This document shows positions 2,680 through 39,276 of a stretch of 43,705 nucleotides of DNA, one piece after another; position 1 is the stretch's first letter; each line of letters begins with the position of its first letter. The position numbers were made by a program, and so were the translations under genes. The DNA lies in sequence record OZ035788.1; one strand, 5' to 3'. The DNA is from Vectrevirus T147P1. The notes below the pieces were generated by a model that had not been told where the DNA came from, searched no databases, and saw nothing but the letters and a program-made list of their open reading frames with translations.

Positions 2680-2979
2680 ATGGCTAAATATGGTACTACA
2701 GGTTCTGTTACTGGTCAGGCTTTTCGAGTAAAAGCAGTACAAACTATTGCAACGGCAATCCCGATGCCTGTTGTTAAAGAAGCAGACCTTAAGAGTAAAG
2801 ACCACCCTATCAACATCAAACATTTATCAGGTAAACAGAAAGGTGCAATGGTTGCTCTTGAGAAAGGTGACACAACCCTGCATATTGCTGTTGCACGTGG
2901 CAGTGAACCAACAGACCCTTGGGATGTAACTGGTATGGAAGAGGAAGCTGTTACTCCAGCAGGGTATAATAATGCTTAA
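2680..2979 (+). CDS. hypothetical protein, paralog B of a tandem pair
   Basis: AGGAGG RBS; clear paralogy to 2383-2661. Confidence 0.65.
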   Translation: MAKYGTTGSVTGQAFRVKAVQTIATAIPMPVVKEADLKSKDHPINIKHLSGKQKGAMVALEKGDTTLHIAVARGSEPTDPWDVTGMEEEAVTPAGYNNA

Positions 2980-3316
2980 TAAATACTTCAAGCGTAAAGA
3001 GTTTGCTTGCCGTTGTGGCTGCGGTACATCCACTGTTGATGCTGAATTACTACAGGTAGTCACAGATGTGCGTGAGCATTTCGGTGCACCTGTAGTTATC
3101 ACCTCTGGGCATCGCTGTGCTAAGCACAACTCCAATGTAGGAGGAGCTAAGAACTCCATGCATCTTACTGGTAAGGCTGCTGACATTAAGGTACGAGGCA
3201 TCTTACCTTCTGATGTACATAAGTATCTTACTGATAAGTACCAAGGCAAATATGGGATTGGTAAGTATAACTCCTTTACTCATATTGATGTACGTGACGG
3301 GTGTGCACGATGGTAG
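2972..3316 (+). CDS. putative endolysin, zinc peptidase M15-type cell wall hydrolase
   Basis: 114 aa; motif SGHRCxxHNxxVGGAxNSMHLTGKAADI typical of peptidase M15 family; followed by small membrane protein and spanin-like ORFs. Confidence 0.7.
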   Translation: MLNKYFKRKEFACRCGCGTSTVDAELLQVVTDVREHFGAPVVITSGHRCAKHNSNVGGAKNSMHLTGKAADIKVRGILPSDVHKYLTDKYQGKYGIGKYNSFTHIDVRDGCARW

Positions 3317-9504: not shown

Positions 9505-9655
9505 GGTAAAGGCTGGCACTAGTCAGCCTATCAAGGCGCAAACCAAGCTCTTTAACAATTTGGATGGTAGCTTCTTAGTCTGGATAGGTTAAACCTAGGG
9601 GATTCTCTTGAGTCTCCTATAATGTAACCTAACTAACTAAATGAGGATTAATAAC

Positions 9656-10009
9656 ATGGCTATGTCTAATATGACTTACTCTCAGGTTTACAACACCGCT
9701 CATGCTGCATTAGTTGAACGTATCTGGGATGATGCTATTGATTGTATCGATAACGCACATGATGCAATCCATGAGGTGGCGGATAGTGCTGTACCAATCT
9801 ATTATGCTGACATCTTCTCAGTGATGGCCAGTGAAGGCATCGACCACTTCTTCGAGGATTCTGGCTTAATGCCAGACACTAAGGATGTGACGGTCGTACT
9901 ACAAGCCCGTATTTATGAACAACTCACCATTGATTTATGGGAACGTGTTCAAGATATGATTGATGAGTACATCGATTCCGCTGAGGATTCAGAAGAAGAG
10001 GAAGAATAA
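9656..10009 (+). CDS. ocr: Ocr-like DNA-mimic anti-restriction protein (T7 gp0.3 homolog)
   Basis: 117 aa; starts MAMSNMTY and contains [43 protein letters not shown] and an acidic C-terminus, matching T7 Ocr as I recall it; ORF opens at 9641 but the RBS supports 9656. Confidence 0.85.
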
Positions 10010-14011: not shown

Positions 14012-14040
14012 GGCCATTCCTTCGGGAGTGGCCTTTTCTT
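14012..14040 (+). terminator. intrinsic terminator after the RNAP gene (TE-like)
   Basis: GGCCATTCC-TTCG-GGAGTGGCC hairpin (9 bp, UUCG loop) followed by TTTTCTTTT. Confidence 0.6.
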
Positions 14041-14215: not shown

Positions 14216-14258
14216 TCCTTCCTCTTATTACTACTTAGAGGAAGGGCAGACCTAAGTT

Positions 14259-14274
14259 GTCTCACATGTGAGAC
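14259..14274. repeat. 16-bp palindrome GTCTCACATGTGAGAC (copy 2)
   Basis: Perfect palindrome immediately upstream of the promoter at 14280. Confidence 0.8.
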
Positions 14275-16830: not shown

Positions 16831-16847
16831 TGTATTTATCAGGGCTT

Positions 16848-16863
16848 GTCTCACATGTGAGAC
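16848..16863. repeat. 16-bp palindrome GTCTCACATGTGAGAC (copy 3)
   Basis: Embedded in an extended inverted repeat GGGCTTGTCTCACA / TGTGAGACAGGCTC. Confidence 0.8.
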
Positions 16864-16896
16864 AGGCTCTTATTAAGTACATTAAATAACTGGAGA

Positions 16897-18020: not shown

Positions 18021-18030
18021 GTCAAGGGTT

Positions 18031-18046
18031 GTCTCACACGTGAGAC
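18031..18046. repeat. 16-bp palindrome variant GTCTCACACGTGAGAC (copy 4)
   Basis: Centre dinucleotide differs; arms conserved; extended stem GGTTGTCTCAC / GTGAGACAGCC. Confidence 0.8.
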
Positions 18047-21336: not shown

Positions 21337-21714
21337 ATGTCTATGGTAACTACTCTGGTATTTGTAGCTCAATACTTTCGTGGTCTGGCTAATAAGTTCA
21401 AGTCCAAGGCTATCAAAGCTATTGAGTCTCGCATCGAGGCAGTACAGGCAGAGCAAGTTAAAGTTGAAGAACATCGTAGTTCTCAAATGATTGACTGCCA
21501 TAACCGCTACTATGCATCTCGTGATGACCTTAATGCACGCCAAGTCAAAGAGGTTGAAGAGATGCTGGCACGTCACCAGCAAGAGCGCGACAGTCTGAAA
21601 GCTGAATTTGAAGAGAACAAGGCATCCATCTCCATTGCACATCAAGCCGCATCTGACAGCCTGAAGAAAGAGATTGTTATGCTGGAGATTGAGTTAGACA
21701 ATCTTACCAAATAA
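21337..21714 (+). CDS. hypothetical coiled-coil protein with N-terminal hydrophobic segment
   Basis: 125 aa; AGGAG RBS; flanked by two phage promoters. Confidence 0.6.
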   Translation: MSMVTTLVFVAQYFRGLANKFKSKAIKAIESRIEAVQAEQVKVEEHRSSQMIDCHNRYYASRDDLNARQVKEVEEMLARHQQERDSLKAEFEENKASISIAHQAASDSLKKEIVMLEIELDNLTK

Positions 21715-21735
21715 TTACTGGACACTATAGAACAA
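21713..21735 (+). promoter_or_regulatory. phage RNAP promoter
   Basis: AATTACTGGACACTATAGAACAA. Confidence 0.65.
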
Positions 21736-21791: not shown

Positions 21792-22598
21792 ATGGCACGT
21801 GGTGATTTTGATTTTGGTGCTCAGGTTACTAAAGCTGAAGGTAAGGTTTTTAAGAACCCTGAAGTTGGTGATCATGAAGCAGTAATCTCTGGCATCATTC
21901 ATGTGGGTTCCTTCCAAGATATCTTTAAGAAAGGTAATACCACTGAAGTTAAGAAGCCAGCAAACTTTGTTCTTGTTAAGATTGTACTGATGGGTGACGA
22001 TGACAAGAACGAAGATGATTCTCGCATGGAACAGTGGATGGCTGTGCCTCTGAAGTCTGGTGACAAGGCAACCTTGACTAAGTTCCTGAATGCAGTTGAC
22101 CCTAAAGAGCTGCTTGGTGGTTTCGATGACTTCATCGGTGAATGCCTGACTGCAACTATGGTTGGCTCTGGCGACAAGAATGATGATGGTACTTTCAAGT
22201 ATGTTAACTGGAAAGGCTTTGGCGGTATGCCTGATAAGTTGAAGAAGCTTGTACTGGCTCAGGTAGAAGAGGAAGGTCTGTCTATGACAGGTCATATCAC
22301 CTTCGACAAGCTGACCAAAGAAATCCTTGATGACATCCCAGCTAACTTGGTGCGTCAATACTTCCTTAATGAAACACCTCGTGGTAAGAACCTGTCTGTT
22401 GCTGGTTCTCACGTAGAAGCAATCATTAAAGCTGCTCGTGAAGAAGACCCAGAGTGGAAGAAAGCCAAGAAGAAAGATGACGAGGATGCTACTCCAGCTA
22501 ATCGTAAACCTCTGGATACTGGTGAGTCTGTTCCACAGGAAGTACCTGAAGCAGAAGATACTCCTGCACCGGAGATGGATGAGGACGCGGAATATTAA
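21792..22598 (+). CDS. putative ssDNA-binding protein (gp2.5-like by architecture)
   Basis: 268 aa; acidic C-terminal tail ending in aromatic residue (PEMDEDAEY); codon usage of a highly expressed gene; product call is by analogy, not sequence identity. Confidence 0.55.
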   Translation: MARGDFDFGAQVTKAEGKVFKNPEVGDHEAVISGIIHVGSFQDIFKKGNTTEVKKPANFVLVKIVLMGDDDKNEDDSRMEQWMAVPLKSGDKATLTKFLNAVDPKELLGGFDDFIGECLTATMVGSGDKNDDGTFKYVNWKGFGGMPDKLKKLVLAQVEEEGLSMTGHITFDKLTKEILDDIPANLVRQYFLNETPRGKNLSVAGSHVEAIIKAAREEDPEWKKAKKKDDEDATPANRKPLDTGESVPQEVPEAEDTPAPEMDEDAEY

Positions 22599-22607
22599 GG
22601 AGAAAGG

Positions 22608-22826
22608 ATGAAAGTACAAATCGTAACTCTGCACTGCAAGAAAGGTATCACAACGCTCGGAGGTAGCACTTTCCACTCTTTCTCCGAAGGGGAGGTTTAT
22701 GCTGACCTGCACTACATCTGGCGCGACGGACAGCACGTGGTGAACTACAGCGACCCAGCTACGGGGAAACGTCACGGCGTATCGCTTCCGGCGCATGACA
22801 TTGCTCAGGTGAACACAGTTTTATAA
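22608..22826 (+). CDS. hypothetical protein
   Basis: 72-aa ORF with AAGGAG RBS. Confidence 0.55.
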   Translation: MKVQIVTLHCKKGITTLGGSTFHSFSEGEVYADLHYIWRDGQHVVNYSDPATGKRHGVSLPAHDIAQVNTVL

Positions 22827-22827
22827 A

Positions 22828-22843
22828 GTCTCACGTGTGAGAC
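22828..22843. repeat. 16-bp palindrome variant GTCTCACGTGTGAGAC (copy 5)
   Basis: Reverse complement of the copy-4 variant; about 15 nt upstream of the promoter at 22859. Confidence 0.8.
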
Positions 22844-22858
22844 AAATCGGTGTCCGGT

Positions 22859-22881
22859 ATTTACTGGACACTATAGAAGAG
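22859..22881 (+). promoter_or_regulatory. phage RNAP promoter
   Basis: ATTTACTGGACACTATAGAAGAG, exact consensus. Confidence 0.8.
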
Positions 22882-22930
22882 AAGAATTTTAATCGGCGAT
22901 AATGCCACAACTAACAAAGGAGAATTTAAT

Positions 22931-23311
22931 ATGTTCAAGATTGAAACTATCGTAAACCGTGTTGTTAAAGGTGCTGCTCTGGTATCCGTTGAGTCTTTCA
23001 TTATCGTCGATGAAGCTGATCAACTGGTAGCTGGTACTAAGGCTTACGATACCCGTGAAGAAGCTCAGGCTAAGATTGACAGCATGGGTAACTTCGCTGC
23101 TGGTCTGGAGTTCGCTCGCGCTTGCTTCCCTGAGCAGGCTGACAAAGCTCAGATTGGTAAGGCTAATATCGTAGCTGAATATCTGGATTGGATTGCTGCT
23201 GGTAAGCCGGTGAAAGAAGTTAAGTCTGCTGAAGAAGCTGAAGCTCAGGCAGTAGAAGAAGAAGTAGCTGCACCGGTAGATGCTCCGGTAAGCGAAGAGG
23301 AAGAGTTTTAA
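22931..23311 (+). CDS. abundant small acidic protein of unknown function
   Basis: 126 aa; ends VSEEEEF; strongly host-optimised codons; own consensus promoter and a downstream hairpin. Confidence 0.7.
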   Translation: MFKIETIVNRVVKGAALVSVESFIIVDEADQLVAGTKAYDTREEAQAKIDSMGNFAAGLEFARACFPEQADKAQIGKANIVAEYLDWIAAGKPVKEVKSAEEAEAQAVEEEVAAPVDAPVSEEEEF

Positions 23312-23317
23312 TTGATG

Positions 23318-23350
23318 CCCTGTCTGCCTTAGTGTAGGCAGGGTCTTTTG
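23318..23350 (+). terminator. possible terminator hairpin with T-run
   Basis: CCCTG(TCT)GCC ... GGCAGGG bulged stem followed by TCTTTTG. Confidence 0.3.
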
Positions 23351-23375
23351 CGTAATAGTTATTGGAGAATGAATT

Positions 23376-23681
23376 ATGCCGACTATTAAATCTCGTTTAG
23401 TAGCAGACTATGTGTATGGTCGTGACTTAAAGTTAATGCAAGATTACTTTAAAGTAATCATCCTGCTGGATGGAGAAGTGTTTCACACTAAAACATTCAC
23501 CCTTCCTGAATTGTTTGATTTAGGTTATTGGGGTTATACATATCAGGCCATAGCAGAAAAGGTGCTACTCAGTGTATTAGAGGAGTGGCCTACATGCGAC
23601 CAAACTTCGACTTCGGAGCTACAGTATCGGAAGACAATAATCTCATCTTGTGGCCAACTGAAGGTAATCGAATCGCTTTAA
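23376..23681 (+). CDS. hypothetical protein
   Basis: 101-aa ORF with GGAGA RBS; its 3' end overlaps the exonuclease start. Confidence 0.45.
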   Translation: MPTIKSRLVADYVYGRDLKLMQDYFKVIILLDGEVFHTKTFTLPELFDLGYWGYTYQAIAEKVLLSVLEEWPTCDQTSTSELQYRKTIISSCGQLKVIESL

Positions 23682-24622
23682 TAGATGCTGATATGTTACC
23701 TTACATCGTCGGGTATACAATCAGTGACATGACTTATGTACGAGCTACAACTCGTGTTAAGTCAGGACAAGTCCCATCAATCAAAGATACCCCTGAGTGT
23801 AAGCAAGCGTGTGACCGTGTGAACTCCTTGCTTAACTCTTGGGTGTATGCAGCAGAGTGTGATGCTGCTAAGTTATTCATGACGAAATCAGAAGCTAACT
23901 TCCGAGTTCGCCTAGCCTTCACCAAACCCTATAAGGGTCAACGTAAGACCGAGAAGCCTCCGTTCTTCTATGAATTGCGAGAGCATCTCTTAGAGGTTCA
24001 TGGTGCAATCTTGGCAGATGGAGAAGAGGCTGATGACCTCATGAGCATTGCACAATGGGACAGCCACCGCCGCTTCCAGCAAGATACAGGTAACGAGTTC
24101 CCTATCGGTAGTCCAGAGCATAAAGCATTCTCTGATACTTGCATCGTTTCCTTAGATAAGGATTTGATGATTGTTCCCGGTTGGCATCTTCAGCCGGGTC
24201 AAGAGAAGAAATGGGTAGAGCCTATGGGTTGGCTTGAGTTACGCCGTAAGGCTAATGGTCAGGTTAAAGACCTTAAAGGTGCTGGCCTCATGTTTCATTA
24301 TGCACAGATGATTATCGGTGATGATATTGATAACTATGCTGGCATACCTGGACGTGGTGCTAAATACGCCTATGATCTTCTCAAATATTGTAAGACAGAG
24401 AAAGAGTTGTACATGGCAGTGCTTGGTGCTTACAAGGCTAAGTTCGGACATGGACAAGTTAAGATTAAGAATTACCGAGGGGGTTATCGTATCGGCAAGG
24501 CTTTTGACCTGATGCTCGAATGTGGTCGTCTAGCTCACATGGCAAGATTCAAAGGTGATATATGGCGAGCCGATAAGAACCCAATCTTGTGGGGAGATGA
24601 TGCGGAATGGTTAGCAAATTAA
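23594..24622 (+). CDS. 5'-3' exonuclease (T7 gp6-like)
   Basis: About 342 aa from the ATG after GAGGAG (ORF opens at 23528); acidic clusters IALIDADMLPY, EEADDLM, SLDKDLMIVPG, IGDDIDNYAGIPG typical of FEN-type nucleases. Confidence 0.85.
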   Translation: MRPNFDFGATVSEDNNLILWPTEGNRIALIDADMLPYIVGYTISDMTYVRATTRVKSGQVPSIKDTPECKQACDRVNSLLNSWVYAAECDAAKLFMTKSEANFRVRLAFTKPYKGQRKTEKPPFFYELREHLLEVHGAILADGEEADDLMSIAQWDSHRRFQQDTGNEFPIGSPEHKAFSDTCIVSLDKDLMIVPGWHLQPGQEKKWVEPMGWLELRRKANGQVKDLKGAGLMFHYAQMIIGDDIDNYAGIPGRGAKYAYDLLKYCKTEKELYMAVLGAYKAKFGHGQVKIKNYRGGYRIGKAFDLMLECGRLAHMARFKGDIWRADKNPILWGDDAEWLAN

Positions 24623-26622: not shown

Positions 26623-27570
26623 ATGAATATCTTTGAGTTCCTAGGTCTTCCAGAAGACCACCGCAATCACCCATTCATGTTGGTGAAGCATCGCGGTGAA
26701 GTTCCTGAGAAGAAATTAACTTTTCCATGTTATGCACAAGTGAAACGAGATGGAATATTCAGTGCTGTTGTGGTGCGCAATGATGGTGCTGTTGCCATCT
26801 TCGGTCGTACTGGTAAGAAGCTCGCAAATGTTGAATCCTTGGAAAAGACATTTAGTGTATTTCCTGTCGGGTTGTATCTTGGTGAGTTGCAATCTATGGC
26901 TGTTGATGTTTATCTTGAAGCCCTGTCAGGAGTGGTAAACCCTAATCGTACAGAGCCACTTGACTTCATAGGCCAGCAGATTAAAGACAACCTGTATATC
27001 GACTTCTTCGATATGTTAACTATTAAGGCATTCCATGATGGATTCACTGATGTTTCTTATCTCAAACGTTACGATGCTTTACATCGTCGCATCGGCGCTC
27101 ATCTTAGCGGGTACAACGCTATCCTTCCTATTACTCCTTGCCATAATGAGCGAGAAGTTGAAGCGTTTGCGCAAGAGCAGATAGACGCAGGCCGAGAAGG
27201 TGCTGTGTTTAAACTGGACTGTGATTATGAAGCAGGACATAAAGGTTATCGTCAGACTAAAGAAATCCGTAAGGTAACTTATGACCTTACTTGTATTGGC
27301 TTTGAAGAAGGTAAAGGCAAATACAAAGGTAAGGTAGCTAACCTCATTTTCAAATGGAAAGGAGGCAAGACAATCAAAGCTATGTTAGGTAAGGGGTGGA
27401 CTCATGCAGATGCAGAACAGATGTTCCACGACATTAAACATGGTGGACGATTGAATGTCATTGGTAAAATCTTTGAAGTCAAAGGTCTTCAGGATTCAAG
27501 CAAGGGCAACATTCGTCTGCCCAAAGCGGGAGAATTAAGACATGACAAAGATGAACCAGATTTCTTTTGA
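26623..27570 (+). CDS. ATP-dependent DNA ligase
   Basis: 315 aa; nucleotidyltransferase motifs KRDG (motif I, lysine adenylation site), LGELQ, EGAVFK, and a KxK motif. Confidence 0.82.
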   Translation: MNIFEFLGLPEDHRNHPFMLVKHRGEVPEKKLTFPCYAQVKRDGIFSAVVVRNDGAVAIFGRTGKKLANVESLEKTFSVFPVGLYLGELQSMAVDVYLEALSGVVNPNRTEPLDFIGQQIKDNLYIDFFDMLTIKAFHDGFTDVSYLKRYDALHRRIGAHLSGYNAILPITPCHNEREVEAFAQEQIDAGREGAVFKLDCDYEAGHKGYRQTKEIRKVTYDLTCIGFEEGKGKYKGKVANLIFKWKGGKTIKAMLGKGWTHADAEQMFHDIKHGGRLNVIGKIFEVKGLQDSSKGNIRLPKAGELRHDKDEPDFF

Positions 27571-32332: not shown

Positions 32333-32366
32333 CCCTATCTACCTTGCGTAGGTAGGGTTATTTTTG
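32333..32366 (+). terminator. terminator after the capsid gene (T-phi-like)
   Basis: CCCTATCTA-CCTTGCG-TAGGTAGGG hairpin followed by TTATTTTTG. Confidence 0.6.
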
Positions 32367-39212: not shown

Positions 39213-39229
39213 TACCTAACTCAAGGCTT

Positions 39230-39245
39230 GTCTCACATGTGAGAC
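39230..39245. repeat. 16-bp palindrome GTCTCACATGTGAGAC (copy 6)
   Basis: Extended inverted repeat GGCTTGTCTCACA / TGTGAGACAGGTC between two internal virion protein genes. Confidence 0.8.
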
Positions 39246-39276
39246 AGGTCTTTATGATAGGCACTATGGAGGAATT

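Follow-up and report, generated by a model that had tools for sequence, protein, structure and literature searches.

We analysed a stretch of 43,705 nucleotides (nt) from Vectrevirus T147P1 (record OZ035788.1), hereafter called the window, and focused on a small open reading frame (ORF) of 126 amino acids (aa) at positions 22931-23311 of the + strand, which by its sequence is a homologue of gp20 of phage SP6. This gp20-like gene appears to carry the strongest expression signals among the non-structural genes of the genome, an observation that is apparently new. Its product consists of a folded N-terminal domain and a disordered acidic end with a near-invariant acidic tip that terminates in phenylalanine (Phe); this tip, the most informative feature, had been missed by an earlier note on this DNA. 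Our favoured reading, which we hold tentatively and with somewhat less than even confidence, is that the gp20-like protein acts as an abundant accessory of the phage DNA replication and recombination machinery, to which it would dock via its acidic tail.

Comparison of the region 22600-23700 with database sequences showed 98-99% identity to the Escherichia phages vB_Ec-G9, KMB47 and VEc3 (genus Vectrevirus, Molineuxvirinae, Autographiviridae), and megablast returned matches in 103 phage records. The ORFs of the window pair one-to-one with SP6 genes, including those for terminase, RNA polymerase, primase-helicase, DNA polymerase, gp17-gp20, exonuclease, endonuclease VII, ligase, portal, scaffold, capsid, tail and internal virion proteins, which identifies the window as an SP6/K1-5-like genome in circularly permuted and nearly complete form. 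The 126-aa ORF matched PHROG 4429 ('unknown function') over its full length (E = 1.5e-56) and showed 95% identity to SP6 gp20 over 99 aa. Its isoelectric point (pI) is 4.29, in line with the acidic protein that had been described earlier. Apart from PHROG 4429, searches of Pfam, NCBIfam, PADLOC and PDB sequences with the protein and with a family profile gave no significant match. Since the sequencing of the SP6 genome the family has been carried as a hypothetical protein, and the gene bore this label in every record seen. The literature searched contained no paper that deals with SP6 gp20 or a homologue and none that assigns a function to the family; data on the transcriptome, the proteome or gene essentiality of SP6-like phages were not found either.

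Expression signals of the gp20-like gene

An SP6/K1-5-type phage RNA polymerase promoter, ATTTACTGGACACTATAGAAGAG (22859-22881, + strand), precedes the gp20-like gene and contains an exact copy of a 17-mer core (22863). By analogy with the SP6 promoter, transcription would start at the G at 22876, 55 nt ahead of the ATG. A search for the 17-mer core with up to three mismatches revealed ten copies in the window, all on the + strand, where 0.12 are expected by chance. Five of these are exact: the copy of the gp20-like gene and four in the late region (125, 2230, 3895 and 31049, the last directly before the capsid gene). The remaining middle-region promoters (14099, 16621, 21254, 21717 and 26016) deviate at one to three positions, so that the copy at 22863 is the sole late-type consensus promoter within the DNA-metabolism cluster. 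Within the predicted 55-nt 5' untranslated leader (22876-22930, + strand), a strong Shine-Dalgarno site, AAGGAG (22917-22922), is located 8 nt ahead of the start codon.

The codon usage of the gene is equally marked. With 0.756, its fraction of optimal (E. coli-preferred) codons exceeds that of every other gene in the set of 38, the capsid gene reaching 0.704 and most genes 0.44-0.60. In a score of capsid-likeness it reached 0.151 and was the only gene with a clearly positive value besides the capsid reference, the gp18-like gene scoring 0.025. Individual aa are encoded almost uniformly, with GCT for 22 of 24 alanines, GGT for all six glycines and CTG for all four leucines.

Directly downstream of the stop codon lies an intrinsic-terminator-like hairpin (23317-23350, + strand), composed of an 11-bp stem with a 6-nt loop (23317-23344) followed by CTTTTG. 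With -16.0 kcal/mol it is the most stable intergenic hairpin with a T-run on the + strand, and its stem (CCCTGTCTGCC...GGCAGGG) is nearly identical to that of the capsid terminator at about 32333-32365 (CCCTATCTACC...GGTAGGG). The only other strong intergenic sites of this type on the + strand are located after the RNA polymerase gene (about 14017-14040) and at palindrome copies near 16868 and 39251. The number of terminator-like sites in the region (five found, 3.0 expected) is by itself not above chance; the case for this terminator rests on the strength of the hairpin, its position and the presence of a strong hairpin after the stop codon in six of six further phages. The mRNA of the gp20-like gene folds no better than shuffled controls (z = -0.78), and Rfam revealed no family in the window. 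Transcription from the promoter to the terminator would yield a monocistronic mRNA of ~475 nt.

As in a late-type expression unit, a consensus promoter is thus found upstream of the gene and a stable hairpin with a U-run directly downstream. The earlier note had reported the exact-consensus promoter, the capsid-like codon usage and the hairpin with T-run, and had predicted very high expression from them; all three signals were recovered, and together with the strong ribosome-binding site they support this prediction well, the codon bias and the hairpin after the stop codon being kept in distant relatives. The unit resembles T7 gene 10 with its terminator T-phi, which likewise combines a consensus late-type promoter, a strong ribosome-binding site and optimised codons with a hairpin and U-run right after the gene. 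It differs from T7 gene 10 in lying inside the replication region and in encoding a small non-structural protein. A terminator in this region may already have been noted, whereas the combination of terminator, late-type promoter and extreme codon bias for gp20 is apparently unreported.

We also examined complete genomes of five divergent relatives from other genera, whose hosts are Salmonella, Erwinia, Vibrio, Pseudomonas and Marinomonas: SP6 (Zindervirus), Era103 (Eracentumvirus) and, from the Colwellvirinae, Vibrio phage phi-A318, Pseudomonas phage Alpheus and Marinomonas phage CB5A. Klebsiella phage vB_Kp_H01 served as the sixth further phage. With the capsid gene as reference in first place, the gp20 homologues ranked second, third, second, second and second by capsid-like codon usage (in the order SP6, Era103, phi-A318, Alpheus, CB5A). 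In all five genomes a GC-rich hairpin of 10-13 bp with a T-run follows directly 3' of the stop codon; vB_Kp_H01 has a strong hairpin at this place, but no clear T-run. A phage promoter just upstream of the gp20 homologue is annotated in phi-A318 and recognisable in SP6. Candidate promoter-like sequences lie upstream in Alpheus and Era103, and none is evident in CB5A. The expression signature thus appears to be kept across subfamilies, which is apparently also new.

Conservation and architecture of the gp20-like protein

The gp20 gene is always positioned between the DNA polymerase and gp18-like genes on one side and the exonuclease and endonuclease VII genes on the other, and the gene order is identical in VEc3, SP6, Era103, phi-A318, Alpheus, CB5A and vB_Kp_H01, which covers Molineuxvirinae and Colwellvirinae. 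We found the gp20 family in 212 and the gp18-like family in 215 phage records, with nearly the same distribution over host genera. Hosts of phages with the gp20 family include enterobacteria, Vibrio, Pseudomonas, Marinomonas and Erwinia. In the phage collection searched, this small family was seen only in genomes of ~42-48 kb, and every classified record whose taxonomy was read belongs to the Autographiviridae. An exhaustive hidden Markov model search of 1.84 billion representative proteins detected only 28 clusters of the gp20 family.

Among 19 pairs of orthologues between the window and SP6, the gp20-like protein showed the highest aa identity (94%). The proportion of synonymous codon differences was 0.19, the second-lowest value, compared with 0.35-0.55 for most genes and 0.35 for the capsid gene. 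The neighbouring genes were ordinary in this respect (gp18 0.38, gp19 0.54, exonuclease 0.46). This conservation fits strong selection on both protein and codons; recent gene exchange is a possible alternative source of the low synonymous divergence.

AlphaFold2 modelling with 55 diverse sequences predicted a folded N-terminal domain of residues 1-95 (22931-23215, + strand) with a pLDDT (predicted local distance difference test) >90, compared with a pLDDT of 54 when only a shallow alignment was used. The predicted fold consists of a long beta-hairpin (strands 3-13 and 16-26) followed by two helices (42-65 and 71-89), and its conserved residues are K37, G58, F61, K72, K77, N79, W87 and G91. The domain is followed by a disordered acidic linker rich in Ala, Glu, Pro and Val (residues 96-119; 23216-23287, + strand; pLDDT <50) and by the C-terminal tip VSEEEEF-COOH (23288-23308, + strand), which we propose to be a docking peptide. 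In the model, pLDDT values below 50 were obtained for residues 98-107 and 111-126, and the pI of residues 96-126 is 4.05. A folded N-terminal and an acidic Ala/Glu-rich C-terminal part had been recognised before; the description of these parts as halves does not hold, as the folded part (1-95) takes up three quarters of the protein and the acidic part is confined to residues 96-126.

Alignment of 16 relatives showed that residues 1-95 are nearly invariant and that the linker contains insertions and deletions. The tip VSEEEEF is again near-invariant, S121, E123-E125 and F126 being identical in all sequences and V120 and E122 nearly so. Representatives with 23-56% identity kept the folded block and usually an acidic [DE]-x-F-COOH end, with no conservation of the linker between them; depending on the family member, 11 to 36 residues follow the conserved W...GKP motif. 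The last residue is Phe in 153 and Tyr in eight of 170 family proteins, the latter in a group from Klebsiella phages, and in most of the remaining proteins the tip is absent or followed by a few extra residues past the Phe. Two long proteins among the representative hits were set aside, P0144 as an unrelated repeat protein on inspection and P0148 for its low-complexity C-terminal sequence.

A Foldseek search of the PDB with the model revealed nothing below E = 0.3, and the sole significant match in BFVD was another uncharacterised family member. A gp2.5/gp4-type tail thus appears to be carried by an otherwise unmatched fold, which is apparently new. Weak hints point to a DUF1508-like core that would span residues 16-55 or so. 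In one source, a close gp20 homologue bears the name DUF1508 (YegP, PF07411). The window protein itself gave no match to Pfam PF07411 at E up to 1, and weak matches were obtained for three of 55 family members (best E = 0.024). In the Foldseek searches, the DUF1508 structure 3bid ranked second with a weak score (E = 0.48), and DUF1508 phage proteins were detected in BFVD with a probability of 0.82. Alignment by hhalign to E. coli YegP alone gave a probability of 0.1%; with a YegP-repeat profile, residues 23-53 aligned in the expected DUF1508 register, which was not significant (P = 0.06). Residues ~23-53 align with the signature in a consistent register; as none of these signals reaches significance, we treat DUF1508 only as a hint. 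To our knowledge, DUF1508 has no known function. Single DUF1508 domains have been reported to form homodimers (bioRxiv 10.1101/2024.11.21.623966).

Acidic aromatic-ended tails and the possible role of the gp20-like protein

Three proteins of the window end in comparable acidic tails with a terminal aromatic residue: the primase-helicase (...TFDDEQEF), the gp18-like protein (21792-22598; ...EMDEDAEY) and the gp20-like protein (...VSEEEEF). The pattern recurs in SP6, phi-A318, Alpheus, Era103 and CB5A, and the helicase and gp18-like tails end with [DE]-x-[FY] in most of seven genomes; two extra residues follow the aromatic residue in the SP6 helicase and the Alpheus gp18 homologue. Some changes affect several tails of one phage. 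In vB_Kp_H01, helicase (...DEESEY), gp18 homologue (...DEGAEY) and gp20 homologue (...TEAEEY) all end with Tyr, and in Alpheus both the gp18 and the gp20 homologue have two residues beyond the Phe. Although few, these concerted changes are what a common receptor would produce.

Similar tails are present in T7, where the sequence record shows gp2.5 ending with ...DEDGDF and gp4 with ...WSNDTDF. The acidic Phe-ended tip that the gp20-like protein has in common with primase-helicase, gp18-like protein, T7 gp2.5 and T7 gp4 thus points to the phage replication machinery. The tail of T7 gp2.5 binds a basic patch on T7 DNA polymerase (PMC12339929), and gp2.5 without its terminal Phe loses the interaction with the polymerase while its binding to single-stranded DNA is unaffected (bioRxiv 10.64898/2026.02.22.705581). 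Like T7 gp2.5, the gp20-like protein would be an abundant protein from the DNA-metabolism region of a T7-supergroup phage with its own phage promoter. It differs in that there is no sequence similarity (BLASTP gave no hit), in its size, which is half that of gp2.5, and in its predicted beta-hairpin with two helices instead of an oligonucleotide/oligosaccharide-binding (OB) fold; a profile search of the PDB was empty. The acidic Phe-ended tail of the T7 gp4 primase-helicase shows the same chemistry as the gp20-like tip and the end of the window helicase (...DDEQEF). Here only the tails are comparable, and the folded parts are unrelated. Three features of a gp2.5/gp4-type docking tail, namely a disordered acidic end, a conserved terminal aromatic residue and the same tail on other replisome proteins of the phage, are present in the gp20-like protein.

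Based on the T7 analogy, we propose the following mode of action. The short transcript of the gene, with its late-strength promoter, strong ribosome-binding site and capsid-grade codons, would give rise to an abundant protein, the capsid-type terminator ending the transcript and supplying a 3' hairpin to the mRNA. The compact, lineage-specific domain of 95 residues would be connected by the flexible acidic linker to the ...EEEF-COOH docking peptide. This tip may insert into a receptor site that is also taken by the tails of primase-helicase and gp18-like protein, most likely on the phage DNA polymerase if the T7 precedent applies. Docking would in this way hold the folded domain at the replication fork or let it compete there. 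Candidate roles of the folded domain are dimerisation, binding of single-stranded DNA or of other acidic tails via K37/K72/K77/N79/W87, and binding of FD[FY]G peptides at the N-termini of the two flanking proteins (see below). The observations that we count for docking are the synteny, the co-distribution with the gp18-like family, the architecture, the shared tails and their concerted change, the T7 precedent, the phage-like tip and the strong constraint.

Several points weigh against this proposal. The folded domain is itself mildly acidic (pI 4.9), has no OB fold and showed no similarity to any DNA-binding or replisome protein. The front basic patch of T7 polymerase, KWKRRWIKGLDGRK, aligns to a shorter and less basic stretch in the polymerase of the window; being only partly conserved, it does not demonstrate a T7-like receptor and is unusable as receptor evidence. 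The co-variation of the tails comes from seven genomes and is imperfect, and the gp18-like protein is itself uncharacterised and gave no significant match to T7 gp2.5. Finally, expression signals above those of every recognised replication gene, together with a late-type promoter, would seem to be more than a simple accessory factor needs.

The same abundance would suit a protein directed against the host, i.e. an acidic inhibitor or decoy that neutralises RecBCD, a nucleoid protein or an SSB (single-stranded DNA-binding protein)-sensing defence by a stoichiometric block of an abundant target. T7 encodes such proteins in the corresponding place, just before the exonuclease gene: gp5.5 binds H-NS and gp5.9 inhibits RecBCD. 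On this reading the gp20-like protein would be their positional counterpart: like them, it is small and encoded between the DNA polymerase and exonuclease genes, it shares the acidity of gp5.9 (its own pI of 4.29 referring to the whole protein), and no gp5.5 or gp5.9 homologue was found among the window proteins around the gp20-like gene that were compared with T7. However, it has no sequence similarity to either, both have another architecture without an acidic Phe-ended tip, and Pfam, PADLOC and PDB gave no match. Counter-defence genes are usually variable accessory genes, whereas the gp20 family holds one syntenic position in ~212 phage records from diverse hosts and is the most conserved protein in comparison with SP6. 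The tip argues in the same direction. Bacterial SSB recruits partners through a conserved acidic, Phe-ended tip, which a flexible linker of varying length connects to the folded domain, and the host SSB ends with ...DDDIPF. The tail principle is the same in the gp20-like protein, but its tip is without Ile-Pro: among 170 family proteins none has the host-like Pro before the Phe (the ends being EEEF, AEEY, EETF, EESF, GEDF and similar), this position being occupied by E, D, S or T. As the tip resembles the tails of the phage's own replication proteins and not that of host SSB, mimicry of host SSB is argued against. The earlier suggestions of a DNA or nucleoid-protein mimic, a host-factor inhibitor or a chaperone-like factor received no specific support. 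The acidity lies in a disordered tail and not on a structured DNA-like surface, and there was no similarity to known mimics or anti-defence families in Pfam, PADLOC, PDB or the T7 proteins. Moreover, the phage already encodes a recognised DNA mimic, since the early gene at 9641-10009 is Ocr-like (anti-restriction protein, PHROG 2568, E = 6.6e-50; C-terminus ...DSEEEEE). We therefore consider a host-directed role rather doubtful. If it applied nevertheless, the gp20-like protein would be a widely conserved takeover factor.

Other explanations place the protein elsewhere in the phage cycle. It might be the phage SSB itself, or a subunit of it together with the gp18-like protein, as a small, abundant, non-OB-fold protein with a gp2.5-type tail. 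No SSB is annotated in any related phage record examined, and no protein in these genomes is detectably homologous to one; a promoter of its own and an acidic Phe-ended tail are also found in the case of T7 gp2.5, the folded domain of the gp20-like protein contains conserved Lys, Asn and Trp residues (K37, K72, K77, N79, W87), and the gp20 family co-occurs with the gp18-like family. The net negative charge of the folded domain and the missing OB fold speak against this, and the larger gp18-like protein (268 aa, with a tail, its own promoter and a weak NxDGT match to gp2.5) is a more conventional candidate; we regard an SSB role of the gp20-like protein as unlikely. The late-type promoter and the capsid-like dosage would be accounted for if the protein, much as T7 lysozyme does in T7, regulated a late process, for example the activity of the phage RNA polymerase or the maturation and packaging of DNA. 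This is the only gene in the middle region with an exact-consensus late-type promoter, its terminator is close to that of the capsid gene, and the replication region has no T7 gp3.5-like amidase, the endolysin being encoded elsewhere (2972-3316). Such a role draws on the expression signals only, neither T7 lysozyme nor any known RNA polymerase-binding protein resembles the gp20-like protein, and its gene lies inside the replication and recombination cluster and not near the RNA polymerase or packaging genes, which makes it distinctly improbable. Codon usage and transcription signals that match the major capsid gene could also indicate a protein of the virion or its assembly (decoration, scaffold-like or internal) that is produced at the level of the capsid. 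This appears extremely improbable: the gene is located ~5 kb upstream of the structural module, in which scaffold, portal, capsid, tail and internal virion genes are all assigned by SP6 homology, and searches of PHROGs, Pfam, PDB and BFVD revealed no similarity to structural proteins, so that the clear structural homology which the earlier note had named as a refutation of its reading was not seen.

The favoured role at the replisome would have wider implications. Phages of the group of SP6, K1-5 and K1E serve in phage therapy and as the source of SP6 RNA polymerase; the SP6-like replisome seems far less studied than that of T7, and the gp20 family is kept across at least two subfamilies of the Autographiviridae. 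If the tail docks on the polymerase like those of gp2.5 and gp4, the gp20-like protein would be an unrecognised major component of, or competitor at, the replication fork, and a simple test case of several proteins with the same tail sharing one receptor.

Neighbouring genes and the intergenic palindrome

The gp18-like protein (21792-22598; 268 aa; PHROG 862, listed with function unknown) has its own promoter at 21717. By size, tail, promoter and codon rank it is the most likely SSB candidate. A profile search of the PDB with this protein was empty, and no significant match to gp2.5 was obtained, hhalign giving only a local NxDGTxK match to gp2.5 residues 99-114 (P = 0.34).

An acidic-aromatic end is also found in the ATP-dependent DNA ligase (26623-27570; ...HDKDEPDFF). 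Ligase homologues of five other phages end with ...PDVF, ...PDF, ...GDF, ...PDY and ...ADF; T7 ligase (...NPQEKM) and the ligase of vB_Kp_H01 (...EDADA) are without such a tip.

The products of the two genes flanking the gp20-like gene, the gp18-like protein and the 5'-3' exonuclease, have an N-terminal peptide in common, F[DN][FY]G[AG]x[VI] (MARGDFDFGAQV... in the region 21792-21870 and MRPNFDFGATV... in the region 23594-23670, respectively). On the + strand of each of six SP6-like genomes this motif was detected two times and no more, and it co-varies between both proteins, with FDFGA in enteric phages and FDYGG in Colwellvirinae. It is absent from the T7 region examined, and in the sampled rows of an exonuclease search only matches from SP6-like phages reached the first residues of the query. 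The shared FD[FY]G peptide suggests a binding partner common to gp18-like protein and exonuclease. A more speculative and unlikely extension of the docking proposal is that the gp20-like protein forms the hub of a replisome organised by peptide motifs, which would be undescribed in SP6-like phages. The FD[FY]G peptides of gp18-like protein and exonuclease would be bound by its folded domain, which would represent either a new fold or a derived DUF1508, and its tail would plug into the polymerase site used by the helicase and gp18 tails, coupling lagging-strand processing or recombination to the fork.

Low divergence from SP6 is also seen for the gp17-like gene (21337-21714; PHROG 7450, 'polysaccharide chain length determinant protein'), which has the lowest synonymous divergence (0.17), suggesting strong constraint or recent exchange. 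Downstream of the gp20-like gene, a 101-aa ORF (23376-23681; PHROG 10319, labelled 'DNA repair protein') begins 26 nt past the T-run of the terminator and shares ~90 nt with the beginning of the exonuclease gene; its optimal-codon fraction of 0.443 is the second-lowest in the genome.

Between the stop codon of the gp19-like gene and the gp20-like promoter we detected a palindrome, GTCTCACGTGTGAGAC(AAATC) (22828-22848, + strand), which may represent an RNA-processing hairpin or a protein-binding site. Vibrio phage phi-A318 has kept it ahead of the homologous promoter, and SP6 has a degenerate form. The 16-nt palindrome GTCTCACRTGTGAGAC occurs five times in the window (0 expected by chance), always in intergenic positions (14254-14274, 16843-16863, 18026-18046, 22828-22848 and 39225-39250).

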